From Candidatus Peribacteraceae bacterium (lineage in GTDB: Bacteria; Patescibacteriota; Gracilibacteria; Peribacterales; Peribacteraceae): 62,810 nt of DNA. Shown here piece after piece: positions 11,921 through 49,458 of this stretch. Below the pieces are notes generated by a model. The model saw nothing but the letters and a program-made list of their open reading frames with translations, was not told the DNA's origin and did not search any database. The translations under genes and the position numbers were made by a program. Position 1 is the stretch's first letter; each line of letters starts with the position of its first letter. The stretch spans positions 47,203 to 110,012 of the forward strand of contig JASMHZ010000001.1 of NCBI GenBank assembly GCA_030750465.1. The letters run 5' to 3'.

Positions 11921-12979
11921 TCATCCTAATACATCCTCCAATCTCCCCTGCTCAATTGCCTGCTTAATATCTCTAGAAAGCCTCCGCCCCGTACTCATAG
12001 GCTCGGAGTATCTGAGAGCTGTGTAAGGAGAACCTTCAACGAACGGATTTGTACCCGCAACAATCCTTGCGCTTATCTCGAATACGAAAATTTCAAGCTT
12101 TCTTGTAACAATTGTCTCTAAACAGAACGGGCCGAATAAACCTTTCCCTCCACAAAGTTCCTGACTCGTTTTTATCACCCTCTCACCCATATCGAACATT
12201 TCGGGAAGCAATGACTCTCTGACCACAACAGGGATGTTGCCTACAATCGTGTAGCTGGTGTGAATTTTGGCTACTAATTGATCTTCCGCCTTTATTCGCC
12301 CAATTGAATCTGCATTGGACTCGTATCTCTTATCAAAACTCATGATTTCAAGCTCTTCTGTAACGGGCGAATAGAAGTAATGGATATAAAGTGGAACCCC
12401 AACAATGTATTCCTGTATTGCGAAGTCATTCTGATCCGGATATTTGCGGTTTTTAACTTCATAGAATTGCTCGGGAGTCTTTGCAACGAAATATCCAAAT
12501 CCCCCACCTGCTCCATGGAATTTAATAATTACAGGCTTGTCTATATCTTCAGGTTTTGGATAAAGTCTTGGAAGTTTAAGGCCCGATTTCTCCATCCATA
12601 CCCTCTCTTTGTTTCTGTCCGATTCCCATTCCAGAATATCCTTTGTGCCATAGTACATTGCCTGGAGTTTTTGTACTCTGTCATGGCCCATGTAGGAGAT
12701 AAATGATCCGTGAGGAATTACAATTGCATTTCTTTTAATGAGCTCCTCCTCCAGCTTTTCGTCCCAGTCCGCGAATTTATTTAATGTGAGTATTTCATCT
12801 GCAACAGGGTAATTTTCTGTATAAAGCTTCTCGCGCCCTTTCTCGCAAATCGCAAGCGTTTTCATTCCTTCGTCTTTGGCTCCTTTAAGGATTTGGAGTG
12901 CGCTGTGGCTGCCAAGAGTCGCGATCACGAAGTCCTTCGGATCTGTAGATGCCGGCAATATGGGATGCGGAGTTGCCAT
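11921..12979 (-). CDS. purP: archaeal-type FAICAR synthetase (PurP-like ATP-grasp), paralogue 2
   Basis: 352 aa. IATLGSHSALQILKGAKDEGMKTLAI..KGREKLY is the PurP N-terminal signature, followed by an ATP-grasp C-terminal half. Confidence 0.8.
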   Translation of the reverse strand: MATPHPILPASTDPKDFVIATLGSHSALQILKGAKDEGMKTLAICEKGREKLYTENYPVADEILTLNKFADWDEKLEEELIKRNAIVIPHGSFISYMGHDRVQKLQAMYYGTKDILEWESDRNKERVWMEKSGLKLPRLYPKPEDIDKPVIIKFHGAGGGFGYFVAKTPEQFYEVKNRKYPDQNDFAIQEYIVGVPLYIHYFYSPVTEELEIMSFDKRYESNADSIGRIKAEDQLVAKIHTSYTIVGNIPVVVRESLLPEMFDMGERVIKTSQELCGGKGLFGPFCLETIVTRKLEIFVFEISARIVAGTNPFVEGSPYTALRYSEPMSTGRRLSRDIKQAIEQGRLEDVLG

Positions 12980-13053: not shown

Positions 13054-13674
13054 CTACACCGCTGATACTCCTTGAAAAGGGACTTCGGACTCAAAACAGA
13101 CACTTGGAGTCATTCCAGCAACAGCTTTTATTAACTTTGGATTACTTTCATATTCCGGCGGTCTCCCATATTGCCTTTTTACAAATAATTCGGGTTTATA
13201 TACAACCGGAAACTCGACAGCAACATCTGCAGCATTCGGAACATGTGTAGTTGGATCAGAGATAAGATGAGCAACACGAGCTTGAAACAATTGCCCAACT
13301 GCAACCCATCCTGGATCGTCACCAATCTGTTCACCCAATAAATGTTTATCAAGATCCAGATAATGCAAAACCTCATCTTGCATTTTCATGAGTTCTCTTT
13401 CCAGAGCTTCGAAATCAACCGGATGTCCATTGCACATATCTCTGACAAATTTAGCAAAGATGGCTCCCCACACTGATACGAGTTCTGACTCACTTAATTT
13501 CCATTTGTCTGCTTCTAAATTTGGTTTCCAAAGACTTATGACCCTTCCTTGCATCAATATGATGTCTCCTTTAGTAACCTGACTCCCATCAGAATGGCGA
13601 GCAAGAGTATCCATCTGCGAAAAATCTACTCTTTCTTTTTTATAATGCAAGACCATTGTTCCGTACCGTTGCAA
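13054..13674 (-). CDS. hypothetical protein
   Basis: 206 aa ORF with no recognisable motif. Confidence 0.5.
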   Translation of the reverse strand: MQRYGTMVLHYKKERVDFSQMDTLARHSDGSQVTKGDIILMQGRVISLWKPNLEADKWKLSESELVSVWGAIFAKFVRDMCNGHPVDFEALERELMKMQDEVLHYLDLDKHLLGEQIGDDPGWVAVGQLFQARVAHLISDPTTHVPNAADVAVEFPVVYKPELFVKRQYGRPPEYESNPKLIKAVAGMTPSVCFESEVPFQGVSAV

Positions 13675-13748
13675 CGGGGCGACTTTGGCTTGTAGAAAAG
13701 CAAACCTTTCATTGCAATCAATATAAAACCCTATAGAATATTTTGGCT

Positions 13749-14990
13749 ATGAATAAGCGTTTAGTTGTATTTTTGAGTCTTGCCTTCGTCCCGATACTAA
13801 TCATCGGGGCCTTGTTCCCGAATCGAATTCTTAATAGAAGAGATTCAGCTTTCGAGTCTGTTAAGGGGTCCGACATTGTTGTATTTGCGAGTGCAGACTG
13901 TCCTCACTGTGCTGAATTCAAGGAGTATGCGACTCTTCAAAATTGGGAAGTGGAATATCTGGAGATTTCTGAAGTGGAGAGCCAGAGGCTTTATGCCAAA
14001 TTAAAAGATAGAGCTCCTCTGCTCCAACAGGCAGTCCCCATCATCTACGTGAACGGGAATGTAGTTCAGGGATACAAAGACAACCAATCCACTGGGCAAA
14101 TGATCTCTCTTATGTTGCATCAATGCAGAGATTCGAATAAGGAATGCCAACCGTTCAGAGACTTTCTAAAAAGTCCGATTCACATAGAAATTCAGACAGC
14201 GGAAGGAATCTGCACGGAAGAGTGTGAATTGAATCTGGATAAATATGTGTTTGATCTGCGCGTGTTTGGAAAAGTGGATCTGACTACCCTTTCTCTGCCA
14301 GCTCTATCGCTACTTCTGGGATTCTTGGATGGATTTAATCCGTGCGCAATGTGGGTCTTGATTACGCTTTTGACGCTGCTGCTTGCAACCAATGATATGA
14401 AGAAGATATGGACTATTGGAGGAATATTCCTGTTTGTAAGTGGAGCAGTTTATTACTTCTTCATCGCAGCATGGCTTAATGCATTCCTGTTAGTTGGATT
14501 TAATGTGTGGGTTCAGAAAATCATAGGGTTAGTTGCAATTGGAGGCGGAGGTTTCTATTTGTATGAAGCAATAGGAAAAGATCCCAATGAATGCAAAGTT
14601 GGAAATCTAAGCCAAAAGCAAAAGACGATAAATAAAATGAAGGACGTGATTAATAGAACCTACTGGCCCGCGATGATTATTGGAGTCGCGATACTCGCCT
14701 TCTCTGTAAATTTGATCGAGCTTGTATGCACTGCAGGACTGCCCGCAGTCTTTACTCAAATACTTGCGTTTAATGACGTTGGAAACTTAGCCCGTTACGG
14801 CTACATGCTCCTCTTCATCATTATGTACATGATTGATGATCTTGTAATCTTCACAATCGCCGTTTACACATTGCACGCAACGGGACTGACTAAAAAATAC
14901 GCCAGGTTCACTCTAATATTCGGAGGAGTGCTTATGTATGGACTAGGAATGTTGATGTTGTTTGCACCGGAGTTGCTGACGTTTTCTTAG
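13749..14990 (+). CDS. thioredoxin-fold (CPHC) domain fused to a CcdA/DsbD-like membrane domain
   Basis: N-terminal TM helix, FASADCPHCAEF redox motif, then a six-helix domain with the GFNPCAMWVL motif typical of disulfide-reductant transporters. Confidence 0.7.
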   Translation: MNKRLVVFLSLAFVPILIIGALFPNRILNRRDSAFESVKGSDIVVFASADCPHCAEFKEYATLQNWEVEYLEISEVESQRLYAKLKDRAPLLQQAVPIIYVNGNVVQGYKDNQSTGQMISLMLHQCRDSNKECQPFRDFLKSPIHIEIQTAEGICTEECELNLDKYVFDLRVFGKVDLTTLSLPALSLLLGFLDGFNPCAMWVLITLLTLLLATNDMKKIWTIGGIFLFVSGAVYYFFIAAWLNAFLLVGFNVWVQKIIGLVAIGGGGFYLYEAIGKDPNECKVGNLSQKQKTINKMKDVINRTYWPAMIIGVAILAFSVNLIELVCTAGLPAVFTQILAFNDVGNLARYGYMLLFIIMYMIDDLVIFTIAVYTLHATGLTKKYARFTLIFGGVLMYGLGMLMLFAPELLTFS

Positions 14991-43612: not shown

Positions 43613-45853
43613 TTATCTCCTAGGCGGCCTTCCGCCCCCATGCCTCGGTGGCCCCCCTTTTCCTCTTGGTGGTCCACTTCTTTCAGCTCCAGGAGGCGGC
43701 TCGGTCATTTGCTTAACAGACATTCTGGTTTTGCCATCACGCGAATCGTATTCAACACACTTGGCTTTCACCTCATCTCCGACATTCAAAATATCTTCAA
43801 CATTTTCCGTCCTCTTCCATTGAAGCTCGGAAATATGGATCATCGCATCTTTGCCTTTTAGGAATTCTACTATTGCACCAACACCGTCGATGATTCGGAC
43901 TACCTTGCAGTCATAAACTGTTCCTACTTCCGGCTTTGCGACTATCCCCTCAATCCATTCCCTGGCTTTTTGCATCATTTCTCCATCCGGAGCGGTAACG
44001 AACACAAGTCCGCTGTCTTCGATGTCGATTTCTACTCCCAAGTCACCGGTAATCTTCTGAATTGTCTCTCCTCCCTTTCCAATAACTAGTCTGATGTCAT
44101 CCGGATTAATAGTAATTGTCTCGATTCTCGGTGCACGAGGACTGAGCTCCTTACGTACTTCTGGAATTGCAGCAAGCATGGCTTTTAGAATTTCTAATCT
44201 TCCAACTCTTGCTTTCTCAAGAGCTTCATCAAATACTTGGTCCGGTATTCCTTTGATCTTTATATCCATCTGGATAGCTGTAACTCCTTTTTCTGTTCCT
44301 GTTACTTTGAAGTCCATGTCTCCTCCAAAGTCTTCCTCATCCTGAAGATCAGAAAGAACCACGTATTGTCCTTTTTCTTCGTCTGAAATAAGACCCAATG
44401 CAATTCCGGATACGGGAGCACTTATCGGAACTCCGGCAGCCATAAGAGCTAATGTTGAACCGCAGGTTGCCGCCATGGAAGAAGATCCATTGCTAGCAAG
44501 GATTTCTGTAACAGTTCGAATTGTGTACGGGAAATCTTTTTCTGATGGAAGCACGGGCTCAATTCCTCTTTGTGCCAAGCTTCCATGCCCTATTTCACGA
44601 TTGCCTACGAAAAGCCTGTTTGAAGTCTCTCCGACAGAGAATGGTGGAAAGTTGTAATGGTGGAAATATCTAAGCTCAACCTCTCCCTCCATTCCTTCAA
44701 CCAGTTGTTTGTTGCCGGGCGAACCAAGTGTGCAGGTTGTTAAACCCTGAGTTTCTCCTCTTTGAAATAATGCAGATCCGTGCACAAAGTCTGGAAGTAT
44801 ATCGACAATTGAAGTGATTTTTCTAATCTCATCTACTTTGCGACTGCTCATCCTGAGCCCCTCTTCCAGAATCAAGCGTCTGACTTCTGATTTTACAATT
44901 TTGTCGGCGAGCATCGATGCGTTTGCATATAGTTTTTCGAGTTCTTCATCCCCTTCTGCAGGAACTTTGCCAAATTTCTCCTCCAGTTTTTCTTGAGCTC
45001 CATCCAAGAACCCTGTCATGATTGCTCTGCGCTCAAGTTTCTCTAGCTTGTCCTTTATAGCCTTGTTAACAGTTGGAAGCATCCACTCTTTAAGGCAGTC
45101 ATAAGCCTCCTGATGCATGAAGGCTTCAGGTGCTTCGAATTTATCCTTGCCAATTTCCTTTTGGATATCTGCAAAGAACTTTGCAATCTTCTGTGCCCAC
45201 TTCTTTCCAAATTCAATTGCCTTCTGTATCTCTGCTTCTGGCAATTGGTTTGCGCCAGCTTCGATCATAACAATACGATCAAGCGATGCAGTTACAAACA
45301 TATCTAAATCTGACTTGGTCCTGGCTTCTCTGGAAGGATTTAAAACCAGTTCGCCGTCGATCAACCCCACTCTGACTGTTCCAAGCGGTCCTTCGGAAGG
45401 AGCGTCGCTTATTGCGACGGCTAAGTTGGCTGCATTGGCAGAAGTGATGTCGTGCTCGCTTTCAAAATCGTAACTGAGTACGGTGCAGAACATCTGTAGA
45501 TCGTTATGAATTGTCTTTGGGAACATCGGACGAAGTCCGCGGTCGATAACACGTGCGAGTAAAACATAACTGTCTGCCGGTCTTCCCTCGCGTTTTCTGA
45601 ATCTGGAACCCGCGATCCTGCCTCCGGCATAAAACTTCTCTTGATAAACGACTTGAAGAGGTAAGAAATCAACTCCCTCACGAGCTCTTTTGCTTACGGT
45701 GAAGTTGCCCATGCTTACAGTCTCGCCCATCTGGCAGAGCACAGTGGCATTTGCCTGGTCTGCGATCGCTCCGGTTTTTACAACCAAAGGCTGATCACCA
45801 AGCTCCATAGTATATTCGCGCTGGCCTTCCAGCGTAGATGTCTTTGCTGACAT
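43613..45853 (-). CDS. pnp: polynucleotide phosphorylase with Gly/Pro/Arg-rich C-terminal tail
   Basis: 746 aa with two RNase PH domains, KH and S1 domains, and the tail PPPGAERSGPPRGKGGPPRHGGGRPPRR. Confidence 0.95.
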   Translation of the reverse strand: MSAKTSTLEGQREYTMELGDQPLVVKTGAIADQANATVLCQMGETVSMGNFTVSKRAREGVDFLPLQVVYQEKFYAGGRIAGSRFRKREGRPADSYVLLARVIDRGLRPMFPKTIHNDLQMFCTVLSYDFESEHDITSANAANLAVAISDAPSEGPLGTVRVGLIDGELVLNPSREARTKSDLDMFVTASLDRIVMIEAGANQLPEAEIQKAIEFGKKWAQKIAKFFADIQKEIGKDKFEAPEAFMHQEAYDCLKEWMLPTVNKAIKDKLEKLERRAIMTGFLDGAQEKLEEKFGKVPAEGDEELEKLYANASMLADKIVKSEVRRLILEEGLRMSSRKVDEIRKITSIVDILPDFVHGSALFQRGETQGLTTCTLGSPGNKQLVEGMEGEVELRYFHHYNFPPFSVGETSNRLFVGNREIGHGSLAQRGIEPVLPSEKDFPYTIRTVTEILASNGSSSMAATCGSTLALMAAGVPISAPVSGIALGLISDEEKGQYVVLSDLQDEEDFGGDMDFKVTGTEKGVTAIQMDIKIKGIPDQVFDEALEKARVGRLEILKAMLAAIPEVRKELSPRAPRIETITINPDDIRLVIGKGGETIQKITGDLGVEIDIEDSGLVFVTAPDGEMMQKAREWIEGIVAKPEVGTVYDCKVVRIIDGVGAIVEFLKGKDAMIHISELQWKRTENVEDILNVGDEVKAKCVEYDSRDGKTRMSVKQMTEPPPGAERSGPPRGKGGPPRHGGGRPPRR

Positions 45854-46101
45854 AATAGAATTAAGGAAAGGAATACAATATCCCTTCCTCCGACAAGCTT
45901 TCCTTTAGTTCTTCTGTATATGTGGATTCACGCTCGAATCAGCTCTAAGCAAACTCAAGTGTAAACCCGCAACAGAAGATAAAGCAGAGGAAGGAAGGAA
46001 CTGGGACGAGTATATCTTATTTAACTTGAAATAAAAGAGTAATCATCTAATTATTATCAACGTAATCTGCATTTTAAAAAAAGCTTGCCTAAGCCAAATG
46101 C

Positions 46102-48000
46102 TCAAGATTTCATCAAATCTTCCAAAGTATCTCCAAACAGCTTAAATCCATCCGTAGAAAAAATCGAATCTGCATGGAACTGGAAGCTTGCAAAGTGCGA
46201 ATTCCTCATTGCATGCACTTCTCCGGAGTTTTGATCGTAAGCCATCTCGACATCAGCAATTTCTTCGTACTGGGCAGCAAATGAGTTGTAGAAACCAACT
46301 CTCTGTTTTTCTCCATCAAAGTAATCGATTACCTTCTGAACACCCTGTGAAGGATCATCTTTCTTATTTATCTTCAAACCAAGCTCTCTGCAAAGCATTT
46401 GATGACTTAAACATTCTGCAAAGAACTTTTTGCCTGATGATTTCAGTTCGCTGACAATTCGACTTAAGCGTGCCATCTTAGGATTATTCATATCATTCGG
46501 ATCTCCCGGACCCGGGCCTACTATCACAAGATCTGAATTGTCACCCGCAACCTCGTAATCTGAATATTTAACGACTTCCGCGGTAACGCCAAGGCTTTTG
46601 ACCATGTGCTTGAGCGTGTATGCAAAATCATCTCCATTATTGATGATTGTAATCTTCTTTTCCTTTAGAGCATCCCTCGTATTATCAACATGCTCCTGAT
46701 TTTCCATCAGGTATCTATTAAAGAGCTCGTTTCTTTCCGCAAGAATTCGCTGAATCTCTGGATCCTCAAGAAGCTTAGCAATCGAAGACTGCGGCTTTGT
46801 GCCGTTCTTATTCTTTAAGCACTTAAGCAGTGCACCAGCTTTTGCCTGAGTCTCTTTAACTTCTTCTGCAGGGACAGAGTCTCTGACCAATGTGGCTCCA
46901 GCTGGGATGCTTATCTCTCCATCTTCCGCATTAATAGTCGCTGTTCTGATTGTGATTGCACTATCCAACACATTTTCCCCATCTCCGTCGCGCCCCATCA
47001 TAACAAGCGCACTTGCATAGTAGCCTCTGGATGCCTGCTCGTACTTATAAATAATTTCGCTAACTGCGTGCCCCATCGGACTACCTGTGACAGTAGGTGC
47101 AAACATGGATCTGCGAAGAAGATCAATGATGTCTTTGTCGCTCATTCCTTCAAGCATGTATTCCGAATGTCCCACATTGCTCATTTCCCTGATGCTCGGA
47201 CCTATGGACTCTCCCCCCTTTTCACACATTCTCGACACCATCTTGAACTCTTCATCCCAAACCATCGCAAGCTCCATTATCTCTTTGTTATCCCGGAGGA
47301 ACGCAATTAATTGATCTCTGGTTACAGGTTTTCCGTTCTTTCTGACGGTTCCACTGATTGGAACCATCTGCACTTGTTTCTTTTTAACTGATAAATGCTT
47401 CTCCGGTGAAGCACCAACTATGTATCTTTCACCGTCATACATTACATAAGACATATAGCTTCCATACTCCGTTTCAAGAATTGTTCTAAGGACGCTAAGA
47501 ACCACTTCGCGAGAAATATTCAAAATCTTTCCCTTATAAACGTTTGGAATTACAAAGTTTGCTCCTTCTCCGTTTCCAATCTCATCTTCCAACACTTTTC
47601 TGATTAACTCCTCATATTCATCAAGAGGAATTGTCGGTTCAAGTTCGTTTCCGCCTTCAAGCTCCAGATCTTCCCTTGGAATTCTTGCACAAACTTTCGC
47701 CACAGACATTCTTGTCTGTCTTTGTATTTCAATTGTAGAAATTTTCTCACCACCATCATGCACTCTATATCCTTTTTCTTTTACCTGGCTAAACGGAAGT
47801 ACGCTGATCGTGTCGAATTCTTCATCACCATTATCAGTTTTCCCCGTTTTTCTGGGAATCTGTTCAAGAAGATCATGCTGACTCGTCTCACCTTCCAAAA
47901 GCATCACTTCATCTTCCCCCTCGCGCATAACCATTGCGAATGGCTGGTCGCCACCTATGATTCTGTCTAATGCCGCTGATGGTGATTTAGATAAAGACAT
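46102..48000 (-). CDS. fused chorismate-utilising enzyme + class I glutamine amidotransferase (TrpE(G)/PhzE-like anthranilate synthase family)
   Basis: 632 aa. The N-terminal chorismate-binding domain has ..TVTGSPMGHA..RGYYASAL..ITIRTA..AGATLVRDSVPAEEVKETQAK. The C-terminal GATase has CLSHQ (the Cys nucleophile) and FQFHADS. Confidence 0.85.
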   Translation of the reverse strand: MSLSKSPSAALDRIIGGDQPFAMVMREGEDEVMLLEGETSQHDLLEQIPRKTGKTDNGDEEFDTISVLPFSQVKEKGYRVHDGGEKISTIEIQRQTRMSVAKVCARIPREDLELEGGNELEPTIPLDEYEELIRKVLEDEIGNGEGANFVIPNVYKGKILNISREVVLSVLRTILETEYGSYMSYVMYDGERYIVGASPEKHLSVKKKQVQMVPISGTVRKNGKPVTRDQLIAFLRDNKEIMELAMVWDEEFKMVSRMCEKGGESIGPSIREMSNVGHSEYMLEGMSDKDIIDLLRRSMFAPTVTGSPMGHAVSEIIYKYEQASRGYYASALVMMGRDGDGENVLDSAITIRTATINAEDGEISIPAGATLVRDSVPAEEVKETQAKAGALLKCLKNKNGTKPQSSIAKLLEDPEIQRILAERNELFNRYLMENQEHVDNTRDALKEKKITIINNGDDFAYTLKHMVKSLGVTAEVVKYSDYEVAGDNSDLVIVGPGPGDPNDMNNPKMARLSRIVSELKSSGKKFFAECLSHQMLCRELGLKINKKDDPSQGVQKVIDYFDGEKQRVGFYNSFAAQYEEIADVEMAYDQNSGEVHAMRNSHFASFQFHADSIFSTDGFKLFGDTLEDLMKS

Positions 48001-48012
48001 AATTAATTAAGT

Positions 48013-48047
48013 AAAAAAACACTTAGAATTGAACAATGCTCAATTCT
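48013..48047 (-). terminator. intrinsic terminator 12 nt upstream of the trpE(G)-like start
   Basis: Minus strand AGAATTGA-GCATTGT-TCAATTCT, then AAGTG and TTTTTTT. Confidence 0.55.
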
Positions 48048-48052
48048 TTAAA

Positions 48053-48127
48053 TTAGTTCCACCAGCTACTACCCATTGATGCTAACAACGTGTTGCTTAC
48101 AGCCGGTTCTGACAAGGTAGTAATCAT
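48053..48127 (-). CDS. candidate Trp leader peptide (24 aa)
   Basis: ATG ATT ACT ACC TTG TCA GAA CCG GCT GTA AGC AAC ACG TTG TTA GCA TCA ATG GGT AGT AGC TGG TGG AAC TAA translates to MITTLSEPAVSNTLLASMGSSWWN. Confidence 0.55.
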   Translation of the reverse strand: MITTLSEPAVSNTLLASMGSSWWN

Positions 48128-48185
48128 GTACTGTTACATCATTACATGACTTTTACGTTAAATCAAGTATTTTCTATAAAAATAT

Positions 48186-48470
48186 CTAATTTTTGCCCAA
48201 TTTCTTTAAGAAATGCTTAAATCCCCCTCCACCATACTGCAGCATTCTGGATCCTCTGGTGATTTTACTTATTGATATTCCAAGATCCTCCGAAATCTTT
48301 CTTTGAGGCACCCCTTTTGAAAGTTTTTGTACAAGTTGCCACCTTTCGGCAATAGAAGCGAGTTCCTGCGGAGTTAAGATATCCTTAAGAAGCTTTTCCG
48401 CTTCACGTTCTGTGTCTACAGAGGCAAAGAGTTTATATAGATCAGCCAAATGAGAAGGTGGAACAGACAT
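48186..48470 (-). CDS. TrpR-like YerC/YecD family DNA-binding protein
   Basis: 94 aa. ..LLKDILTPQELASIAERWQLVQKL..GVPQRKISEDLGISISKITRGSR.. is the YerC/YecD Trp-repressor-fold signature. Confidence 0.8.
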   Translation of the reverse strand: MSVPPSHLADLYKLFASVDTEREAEKLLKDILTPQELASIAERWQLVQKLSKGVPQRKISEDLGISISKITRGSRMLQYGGGGFKHFLKKLGKN

Positions 48471-48543
48471 TCAACTGAGGAGTCTACATTACCCGAAACA
48501 TGTGATAAATAGATTTTCTACTTTATATATCTGACCACCTACT

Positions 48544-49179
48544 TTACAGCTTGCAGATACACGCAAGTGCATTCACAAGTTGTGATGAAAAGTCTGTATC
48601 CATATTAAAATAATCAAAACCGAACTTCTCTGAATCTTCCCTTGTTGCTTTCCCATGCAATGCTGTTATATGTGCATACTTCTTTTGTGTCTCCTTATTG
48701 GAATCTTTCAACAGCCAATCATTATTAGGAGCACCTTCTTCCCAGCCTGCTACAATGGACCTTTCGTCTTCTTTTAAAAGGAATACTGCTCTTACAGACA
48801 TAGAATTTTCTTCGTTTAGGAGTTCGTTGAGAAAATTAGGAGTGATCTGATAACCCTCAATAACTATGTTATCTCTCAATGAGATTCCATAATTGACCAT
48901 AGCTTTGATACTCTCCCATGTTGATCTTCCTTGATCAACATACGCTGCAACAATTTGCTCTGCACTATATTTCTGTACTAGGACTGCATTGTCTCGGTTG
49001 GTTTCATTTCTCATATGTGAAAATGGCCTCATGGCTTTCTCCTTTTCCGTTGGATAAAACTCTGTAATTGCAGCTTCAACGAAGTCCATCGGCAGTATTC
49101 GAGCTCCTACCTTTTCAGCTACCATTGATGCGAGCATTGTTTTTCCCGATCGTGATGGCCCTCCTATGAGATAGATCAT
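48544..49179 (-). CDS. P-loop NTPase/kinase-like protein (2-phosphoglycerate-kinase/zeta-like, tentative)
   Basis: 211 aa with Walker A GGPSRSGKT at the N-terminus. Confidence 0.55.
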   Translation of the reverse strand: MIYLIGGPSRSGKTMLASMVAEKVGARILPMDFVEAAITEFYPTEKEKAMRPFSHMRNETNRDNAVLVQKYSAEQIVAAYVDQGRSTWESIKAMVNYGISLRDNIVIEGYQITPNFLNELLNEENSMSVRAVFLLKEDERSIVAGWEEGAPNNDWLLKDSNKETQKKYAHITALHGKATREDSEKFGFDYFNMDTDFSSQLVNALACICKL

Positions 49180-49191
49180 GCATGTATGATA

Positions 49192-49458
49192 CTACTTCTT
49201 CAACTTATTCGCTTCCACAACATTCTGATACTCATTCGGATCATGCATCTTTAAGTATGTAAGGAGCCTTCTCCTCTGTGCAACTTTGCCGAGTAGTCCC
49301 CTTCTTGCTGATTGATCTTTCTTGTGATCCTTCAAATGCTTTGTAAGTTCCAAAATTTCCTTTGTGAGGATCGCAATTTGTACCTGAGGCGAACCTGTAT
49401 CTTTTTCGTGCATTCGATGTTTGGTAATCACTCTCTTTTTGATCGTTCTCTTTAACAT
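49192..49458 (-). CDS. rpsO: 30S ribosomal protein S15
   Basis: 88 aa. ..DTGSPQVQIAILTKEILELTKHLKDHKKDQSARRGLL..RRRLLTYL. Confidence 0.93.
   Translation of the reverse strand: MLKRTIKKRVITKHRMHEKDTGSPQVQIAILTKEILELTKHLKDHKKDQSARRGLLGKVAQRRRLLTYLKMHDPNEYQNVVEANKLKK

Follow-up and report, generated by a model that had tools for sequence, protein, structure and literature searches.

The 185-nucleotide (nt) spacer at positions 48001-48185 on the minus strand of the window, the 62,810-nt stretch of DNA from a Candidatus Peribacteraceae bacterium that was analysed here, lies between a TrpR-like regulator gene (48186-48470) and a gene encoding a fused chorismate-binding/glutamine amidotransferase (Chorismate_bind/GATase) enzyme related to PhzE (46102-48000). 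By sequence comparison, this spacer is a conserved tryptophan-responsive control region composed of a candidate TrpR-type operator/promoter, a leader open reading frame (ORF) containing Trp codons and a putative terminator; all its control features are located on the minus strand. We estimate at about 0.5 the probability that it governs a single-gene transcription unit through two layers of control by tryptophan, of which the window carries a compact version. A common module comprising a TrpR-like gene, a -35 box of the form TTGAyt, a palindrome, a leader ORF, a hairpin with a U-run and the enzyme gene was identified in sixteen Peribacteria-type loci (the TrpR-like gene cannot be seen in two of the sixteen, which are incomplete). 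The whole spacer of the window folds better than shuffled sequence (z = -2.6).

A leader ORF with tandem Trp codons is conserved in close relatives

The initial annotation of this DNA had described a leader ORF, a hairpin and a run of seven U residues (U7) on the minus strand; all are present, the hairpin starting 5 nt past the leader stop codon. The leader ORF (48053-48127) consists of 24 codons plus a stop, encodes MITTLSEPAVSNTLLASMGSSWWN* and reads ATG ATT ACT ACC ... AGC TGG TGG AAC TAA. The tandem Trp codons UGG UGG (WW) occupy codons 22-23 (48059-48064). They had been placed two codons before the stop; the pair is real, but its second UGG is separated from the stop codon (48055-48053) by the single codon AAC. 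The leader has no Shine-Dalgarno (SD) motif and its ATG directly follows the operator palindrome described below; with a predicted 5' untranslated region of ~5 nt, the mRNA would be nearly leaderless.

The leader ORF is conserved in loci L001/L003, L004 and L002/L088, the enzymes of which are 89%, 81% and 82-83% identical to that of the window, respectively. When these orthologous spacers were compared for conservation of WW and of the stop position, as the initial annotation had proposed, all of them were found to have 24 codons, with WW as codons 22-23 and one more codon ahead of the stop, and the UGG pair is invariant in four close relatives. The peptide of L002 (MIITSLEPVVYNKSLSLLRGIWWR) shares ~43% identity with the window peptide, yet its length and WW features are kept. 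The window and L001 leaders differ by three synonymous changes and one non-synonymous change, and the N- and C-termini of the peptide are conserved among the close relatives (MI(T/I)T... and G-x-WW). The comparison at this range includes four distinct sequences, and a metagenome scan did not add any close relative to the WW clade, its best match being 50% identical.

A long-range stem within the leader (48066-48123) was found in the RNAalifold consensus, in which UUACUACC (codons 2-4, 48123-48116) pairs with GGUAGUAG (48073-48066). RNAalifold extends this 5' stem such that the leader AUG (48127-48125) pairs with the UGG codons, the partner strand being GGUAGUAG-C-UGGUGG. The stem is kept in all four close leaders, with the version UACCUC:GAGGUA in L002, and may constitute a pause or default-off structure.

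A candidate TrpR-type operator overlaps the predicted promoter

The promoter had not been located in the initial annotation, and a candidate is present in the spacer: a -35-like box TTGATT (48166-48161) and a -10 element situated within an 18-bp palindrome, GTAATGATGTAACAGTAC (48145-48128), which is a candidate TrpR-type operator. The palindrome lies 15 nt after TTGATT, its left half supplies a TAnnnT-type -10 (TAATGA/AATGAT) at a spacing of 16-17 nt, and it overlaps the predicted transcription start and ends exactly at the leader ATG. Transcription is predicted to start ~5 nt before the leader AUG. A scan with the sigma-70 consensus missed this promoter because its -10 is non-canonical, and it emerged only by comparison of loci. 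Each of the 15 aligned loci has a TTGAyt box at a fixed distance of 15-16 nt from the palindrome (with variants TTGCTT in L093 and TTGCAT in L033), 11 of the 18 positions of the family operator consensus GTACCGTTGTAACGGTAC are invariant across 15 loci, and the leader ATG immediately follows the last base of the palindrome in 11/15. The window variant GTAATGATGTAACAGTAC is also present in the distant L012, and L009 has a shortened form, GTACCGGTAC. Together, the operator and promoter form the best-conserved part of the spacer.

The palindrome co-occurs with the regulator. The TrpR-like gene is directly upstream of the enzyme gene in every Peribacteria locus with enough upstream sequence, and a GTA-N12-TAC palindrome at most 700 nt upstream of the enzyme gene was present only in loci that have a TrpR-like gene or are too short to show one; none of the ~70 loci outside that set has such a palindrome. 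The regulator of the window (48186-48470, minus strand) is a protein of 94 amino acids (aa) with the Pfam domain Trp_repressor (PF01371, 7e-22). It scored 57.7 bits against the TrpR model TIGR01321 (cut-off 67.25) and 36.4 bits against the YerC/YecD model (cut-off 42), and its matches in the PDB are YerC-like proteins at ~30 bits and E. coli TrpR at ~27 bits. It had been designated a TrpR-fold YerC; the fold is supported, but judged by these scores the sequence is intermediate between TrpR and YerC. By eye, the protein has counterparts of E. coli Thr44, Arg54, Arg84 and Gly85 (in LTP, ERW and ITRGS) and has no counterparts of Ser88 and Thr81. The arrangement of the spacer indicates that repressor and leader probably both control the enzyme gene.

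Operator-like palindromes were also observed elsewhere. In the window, GCCCCGTTGCAACGGTAC (13663-13680, minus strand) matches 15/18 positions of the Peribacteria operator consensus and is located 6 nt upstream of the ATG that opens a 200-aa ORF without a Pfam domain (13054-13656, minus strand), opposite a glutaredoxin-domain gene (13743-14990); no convincing -10 box or promoter was found at this palindrome. In the more distant lineage represented by L033/L034, a palindrome GTAACGGTGTACCGTTAC is present upstream of the TrpR-like gene (about 1868-1885), where autoregulation may take place, and an operator-like GTACTGTTGTAGCGGTGC upstream of the enzyme gene (~2350) is followed by a possible 22-codon ORF with a GTG start and one Trp. 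In L001 (816-860) and L003 (3718-3760), the interval between the TrpR-like stop codon and the -35 box carries four tandem heptamers (AGCTTAG-like) and then T8; these repeats are absent from the window.

Leader families of other Peribacteria share the Trp codon position, and five loci are predicted to switch classically

In most of the Peribacteria-type loci the leader ORF starts right after the palindrome, and in nearly all of them a hairpin and a U-run are present. When the window type is included, the leader ORFs fall into seven families of 22-176 codons without detectable mutual similarity (22 codons in L009, 70 in L093, 92-95 in L008/L090/L091, 140-141 in L005-L007, 144-145 in L012/L089 and 176 in L092). 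The long leader ORFs (L005-L007, L008/L090/L091, L012/L089, L092 and L093) represent at least five unrelated families and diverge fast, those of L005 and L007 being 53% identical. No Pfam domains were found in the long leader ORFs.

Across the seven families, the Trp codons are located in the last 2-6 codons, with the exception of W12/W13 of the 22-codon L009 leader. In each long leader ORF the only Trp codon (in L093, a pair of neighbouring ones) precedes the stop by 4-6 codons; L009 has W12, W13 and W21. Outside the last six residues, the five long families have no Trp in ~593 residues, compared to ~7 expected from the Trp frequency of the window (1.18%; P ~1e-3). A Trp within the last six codons is present in every family, whereas the probability of this by chance is ~7% per family.

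In nearly all relatives the leader is followed by a hairpin and a U5-U8 tract, together with a conserved GUAUUUC; no clear terminator was found in L093. To represent the ribosome, transcripts were folded with a 28-nt mask (P site -12 to +15), which is a crude model. The automatic choice of the terminator in relatives first took antiterminators and was repeated with a length limit. The probability of the terminator with the ribosome stalled at the Trp codon and with the ribosome at the stop was 0.00 vs 0.85 in L009, 0.00 vs 0.91 in L008, 0.10 vs 0.61 in L006, 0.00 vs 0.56 in L012 and 0.00 vs 0.49 in L092, respectively. In these five loci, the probability is also 0.00-0.10 without a ribosome, and the 5' arm of the antiterminator overlaps or abuts the stop codon. 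According to this model, L006, L008, L009, L012 and L092 follow the logic of classical attenuation: in these sister lineages a terminating ribosome would destroy the antiterminator and a ribosome stalled at the Trp codon would spare it. The general idea of the initial annotation, that the Trp-codon leader governs read-through, is strongly supported by the folds of these relatives, the terminator of which is predicted only with a ribosome at the stop.

The window leader is followed by a predicted composite terminator stem

The inner hairpin of the window (48025-48047), AGAAUUGAGC-AUU-GUUCAAUUCU, has a folding energy of -10.1 kcal/mol and its first base is 5 nt after the leader stop. Written as AGAAUUGA(GC)-AUU-(GU)UCAAUUCU, it comprises 10 bp once the G-U and C-G pairs are included. 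The sequence AAGUG (48024-48020) separates it from the U7 tract (48013-48019; U4-U8 in relatives), which is followed by 12 nt up to the enzyme ATG at 48000. Both the hairpin and the U7 run had been reported; however, the run does not abut the 8-10 bp hairpin but is located 5 nt farther downstream. Such a 5-nt gap between hairpin and U-run is a poor geometry for an intrinsic terminator.

Folding that takes in the U-run gives, as the structure of minimum energy, a composite stem (48020-48053) in which the inner hairpin is extended by an outer helix, AUUU (48053-48050):AAGU (48024-48021), with an AA bulge (48049-48048) and with G48020 before the U-run; the end of this stem is 1 nt from U7. The AUUU strand begins with the last base of the leader stop codon. 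Equivalents of the outer helix are AAUUUA:UAAGUU (6 bp) in L001, AUUU:AAGU in L004 and, with different bases, UUAGG:CCUUAA in L002. In each of the four window-clade sequences, the composite stem extends to the U-run and has its base 0-4 nt from the stop. The pairing in the outer helix would explain the conservation of UAAGUG. The inner hairpin itself is kept in L004 and weakened in L001; in L002 its position is occupied by a hairpin of another sequence, CACGCA...UGUGUG.

The sigma-70 consensus scan revealed nothing promoter-like from the hairpin to the enzyme ATG, and the 12 nt that follow the U-run leave no room for a promoter there, as the initial annotation had stated. At gathering thresholds, Rfam searches of the whole window detected no family other than tRNA, neither Trp_leader (RF00513) nor T-box, and a search of 47900-48600 with E up to 10 gave only chance matches to snoRNAs. 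Sequestration of the enzyme AUG by the 3' arm of the hairpin was considered and rejected, as only 4 A-U pairs are possible by eye and in the folds. Directly after the enzyme stop codon, a terminator-like hairpin with a U-run is present (46088-46106, minus strand), which is consistent with a monocistronic leader-enzyme unit.

A model for two layers of tryptophan control

In the first layer of the proposed model, the sigma-70-type promoter (TTGATT, 16-17 nt, TAATGA/AATGAT) overlapped by the 18-bp palindrome would be blocked by the TrpR-like protein encoded immediately upstream, which would bind the palindrome together with a co-repressor, probably L-tryptophan. In the second layer, transcription would begin ~5 nt ahead of the leader AUG and the 24-codon leader would be translated without an SD site, as seems usual in the host. 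When charged tRNA-Trp is scarce, the ribosome would stall at UGG22 or UGG23. With UGG23 in the A site, the front of the ribosome (~+15/16) would cover the stop codon and the AUUU at the base of the composite stem; the inner hairpin alone, 5 nt from the U-run, would then be a poor terminator and the polymerase would enter the PhzE-like gene. With Trp in good supply, the ribosome would finish the leader and leave, allowing the full stem to form beside U7. If no ribosome is loaded, the 5' stem would hide the AUG and the full stem would form as well. In either case the result would be a terminated transcript of ~120 nt.

The initial annotation had suggested that a ribosome paused at the Trp codons covers the 5' arm of the terminator, and the distances do not allow this. 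Relative to the P site, the first base of the hairpin is at +18 with UGG23 in the A site, at +21 with UGG22 and at +12 with the ribosome at the stop. The front edge of a stalled ribosome at ~+15/16 falls 2-5 nt short of the 8-bp hairpin, and only the weak outer helix is covered. With UGG23 in the A site, the 5' arm of the outer helix is fully covered in the window, L001 and L004. Based on these folds and distances, the occlusion model survives in a weaker, refined form acting via the outer helix, and we consider the chances even that read-through in the window clade is induced by starvation through occlusion of the terminator base. A weak antiterminator that had been suggested, formed by GCAUCAAU and AUUGAGC (ATTGAGC in the DNA), was rejected: it lies within ~12 nt behind a ribosome stalled at WW, would sit under that ribosome and is present in no predicted fold.

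A number of observations weigh against this interpretation. No antiterminator was found in folds of the window and its close relatives, and the inner hairpin has a probability of 0.98-0.99 irrespective of a ribosome stall at WW, compared to 0.47 with a ribosome at the stop. A terminating ribosome would block the stem no less effectively than a stalled ribosome, and the mechanism would therefore depend on fast release of the former. Stalling at the first UGG (UGG22) covers one base of the outer helix, and occlusion of the outer helix in L002 is only partial. The outer helix is weak, with 4 A-U/G-U pairs, and the composite stem gains no more than 0.2 kcal/mol over the inner hairpin by itself. 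The covariation term of RNAalifold (+0.81) is not supportive, four close sequences having little statistical weight. In L001, the inner stem lacks one of its base pairs and the U-run is degraded to UUUU-A-UUC. Among the relatives, L005, L007, L089, L091 and L093 do not give a clean switch in the crude ribosome-mask model. Finally, the regulator scores below the TrpR equivalog cut-off, and L-tryptophan is thus no more than its probable ligand. As far as the folds can tell, the attenuator is reduced in the window clade to a form without an antiterminator.

Alternative explanations

Control might be exerted by the repressor only, the ORF and the hairpin with its U-run being shrunken relics of the attenuator of the sister lineages and at most a constitutive partial terminator. 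This would fit with the lack of an antiterminator and a hairpin that forms regardless of stalling, with the AU-rich and weak terminator separated by 5 nt from the U-run, with the partial loss of stem and U-run in L001 and with the operator/promoter being the best-conserved part of the spacer. However, a relic is expected to lose its reading frame or its UGG codons first, whereas the ORF length, the WW position, the one-codon gap and a stem base 0-4 nt past the stop are kept in four genomes; L002 even keeps the leader layout despite different peptide and hairpin sequences. We consider repressor-only control unlikely. An inverted logic, similar to that of pyrBI or tna, is improbable: a ribosome at the stop would block the hairpin and turn the gene on at high Trp, and a stall at WW would lead to termination. 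It would account for the ribosome at the stop being the sole mask state that lowers the hairpin probability (from 0.98 to 0.47), the hairpin base then being at +12 from the P site compared to +18 and +21 for stalls at W23 and W22. Yet the folds of the sister lineages, whose regulator, operator and enzyme are the same, point in the classical direction, a W23-stalled ribosome does cover the outer helix, and induction by Trp would oppose a TrpR-type repressor if Trp is the co-repressor.

Slightly more improbable still is that the transcript or the peptide acts mainly in trans, like rnTrpL and peTrpL in Sinorhizobium, or that the structure controls translation of the enzyme or mRNA stability. The conserved peptide termini (MI(T/I)T... 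and G-x-WW) and the conserved 5' stem, in which the AUG is paired with the UGG codons, are compatible with such roles, for which there is precedent (PMC6614838, PMC7298713); but the leaders of relatives are unrelated and range from 22 to 176 codons, which argues against a conserved function of the peptide, and the enzyme AUG is not predicted to be sequestered. That a short ORF and an AU-rich stem without an Rfam match arose by chance in an AT-rich spacer is effectively refuted by the comparative data, namely the conservation of the features in four genomes, the family-wide bias in Trp codon position and the fixed start of the ORF relative to the operator.

The controlled gene encodes a PhzE-type enzyme located between rpsO and pnp

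The enzyme gene (46102-48000, minus strand) encodes a protein of 632 aa with the Pfam domains Chorismate_bind and GATase. The protein matches Burkholderia PhzE (PDB 3r74) with 399 bits over its full length (residues 10-627), compared to at most 62 bits for TrpE/PabB structures, and it scores below every NCBIfam equivalog cut-off. The initial annotation had likened it to rhizobial-type fused trpE(G), a view that does not hold: the scores against the rhizobial TrpE(G) models are 140.8 bits for TIGR01815 (cut-off 739) and 167.3 bits for PRK13566 (cut-off 645). Judged from these matches, the enzyme is of the PhzE type and not a rhizobial TrpE(G). Homologues are widespread under mixed names (phzE, 2-amino-4-deoxychorismate synthase, anthranilate synthase family), and stand-alone PhzE-like enzymes are found for instance in Peribacteria, SAR324, Jacksonbacteria, Margulisbacteria and Altiarchaeum. 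No phz genes are present near the enzyme gene in Peribacteria, and no phz or trp genes were found among the neighbours checked in other lineages. In the non-Peribacteria loci L028, L044 and L064, the PhzE-like gene is followed by a separate trpG/pabA-like amidotransferase gene and a pabB-like chorismate-binding gene of 300-320 aa, which suggests that the enzyme is linked to folate or aminobenzoate metabolism in these lineages.

The genomic loci nearest to the window belong to Candidatus Peribacter and other Peribacteria metagenome-assembled genomes of the candidate phyla radiation (CPR). In Peribacteria, the neighbours of the enzyme gene are rpsO, the TrpR-like gene and pnp, and the enzyme gene is always located between rpsO and pnp, behind the TrpR-like gene. 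The genes rpsO and pnp are usually adjacent, and the TrpR-like/PhzE-like module is inserted between them in most of the Peribacteria loci examined (43613-49458 in the window; L003-L006 and L089-L093). In the window, an additional P-loop kinase-like ORF (48544-49179, weakly similar to 2-phosphoglycerate kinase) is present between rpsO and the regulator gene; L005 has an unannotated 220-aa ORF at this position, and L003 and L004 have none.

The statement that the window contains no other trp genes was confirmed with E. coli TrpA, TrpB, TrpC and TrpD as queries against all ORFs: no trpA, trpB, trpC or trpD was found in the window, nor in the 2-6 kb around the enzyme gene in 86 related loci, the rest of the genomes being outside the search, and the only matches were to the amidotransferase parts. 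An SD-like motif is present upstream of only 2 of the 40 window ORFs of at least 200 aa, and translation initiation in the host seems largely independent of SD sequences. In complete genomes of Ca. Peribacter riflensis, only the synthesis of Ala, Ser and Gly is predicted, and this related species is reported to be without most amino-acid biosynthesis (PMC4736985). The host is probably a tryptophan auxotroph.

Apart from this locus, a window ORF at 11921-12979 (minus strand) was found to combine the domains DUF1246 and DUF1297. We take this combination to be typical of the archaeal-type purine enzyme PurP and unusual for a bacterium.

Implications

If the spacer is subject to both layers of tryptophan control, a broader interpretation can be put forward, which is speculative and, in our view, rather unlikely in its entirety. 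Two independent tryptophan sensors, the TrpR-type repressor and the Trp-codon leader read by the ribosome, would switch on a lone PhzE-type enzyme in a Trp-auxotrophic symbiotic CPR bacterium, and this enzyme would turn imported or scavenged chorismate into anthranilate or 2-amino-2-deoxyisochorismate (ADIC) for a host or partner; in addition, leader 'peptides' of 70-176 codons would be constrained only at their operator start and at one or two terminal Trp codons (usually one). The enzyme would then not serve the cell's own tryptophan synthesis. Handover of anthranilate or ADIC could bypass the feedback-inhibited first step of the partner, or act as a signal, and the partner would supply more tryptophan.

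Whatever the product, control linked to Trp or tRNA-Trp, as inferred here, would be a functional clue for the uncharacterised family of stand-alone PhzE-like enzymes. Such control is odd in a lineage reported to be without most amino-acid biosynthesis (PMC4736985). Among the papers searched, there was no report of ribosome-mediated attenuation or of TrpR-type repression in Patescibacteria, and nothing relevant when Peribacteria or Peregrinibacteria was combined with tryptophan, chorismate or anthranilate. The module would provide a compact and testable cis-regulatory system for a CPR group without genetics. The family would form a natural series, from classical terminator/antiterminator designs with leaders of up to 176 codons down to the 24-codon version without an antiterminator, that could reveal how attenuators arise, become simpler or disappear. 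The operator consensus GTACCGTTGTAACGGTAC could serve as a query for the remaining members of the regulon in Peribacteria genomes, for instance Trp transporters.

Comparison with known systems

The module represents a novel form of the dual control by Trp known from other bacteria. According to the proposed model it works like the E. coli trp region, and it is not a sequence member of the Trp_leader family. As in E. coli, a TrpR-fold repressor is combined with an 18-bp palindromic operator over the -10 (a candidate in the present case), and the sequence that we take to be the E. coli trp operator, GTACTAGTTAACTAGTAC, resembles the Peribacteria palindrome in its 18-bp length, its symmetry and its outer GTAC...GTAC arms. 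As in E. coli trpL, tandem UGG codons are located shortly before the leader stop and are followed by a terminator (a putative one in the window), and the predicted folds of Peribacteria relatives have the same terminator/antiterminator logic as E. coli trp. Unlike in E. coli, there is no match to the Rfam Trp_leader family, the leader ATG abuts the operator and the transcript is predicted to be nearly leaderless. Peribacteria leaders furthermore lack an SD motif and reach 176 codons in relatives, and the window clade has no antiterminator. The target also differs, being a single PhzE-type enzyme rather than a trp operon, with the regulator gene adjacent to it in a CPR host.

In E. coli pyrBI and pyrE, a ribosome on or abutting the terminator stem prevents termination without an antiterminator helix. 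The model for the window is similar in that the ribosome would occupy the terminator stem in the absence of such a helix. The leader ORF of pyrBI, however, extends across the terminator, and the signal there is UTP-dependent pausing of the polymerase rather than codon-specific stalling.

The enzyme resembles PhzE, the 2-amino-2-deoxyisochorismate synthase of phenazine biosynthesis (PDB 3r74), in its fused architecture over the full length, but unlike phenazine PhzE it has no phz genes nearby and its control appears to be linked to Trp. With trpL-trpE(G) of Sinorhizobium meliloti (PMC6614838), the locus shares a stand-alone fused chorismate-binding/amidotransferase gene behind a short Trp-codon leader and a terminator, which is putative in the window; the enzyme of the window belongs to a different clade. 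The rhizobial trpL attenuator has a full four-segment structure and operates without TrpR, the other trp genes being elsewhere in the genome (PMC6614838).

The locus is also reminiscent of trpRBA of Chlamydia trachomatis (PMC7755916, PMC6504234), in which trpR is followed by an intergenic region with a Trp-codon leader (TrpL) and regulatory elements and then by a partial set of Trp-pathway genes, in a host-dependent organism with an incomplete pathway. In C. trachomatis, the operator is upstream of trpR, the targets are trpBA (indole salvage) and the iron-dependent repressor YtgR is involved (PMC7755916, PMC6504234). In the Peribacteria, in contrast, the candidate operator is located between the regulator and the enzyme genes, and the enzyme stands at the chorismate end of the pathway.

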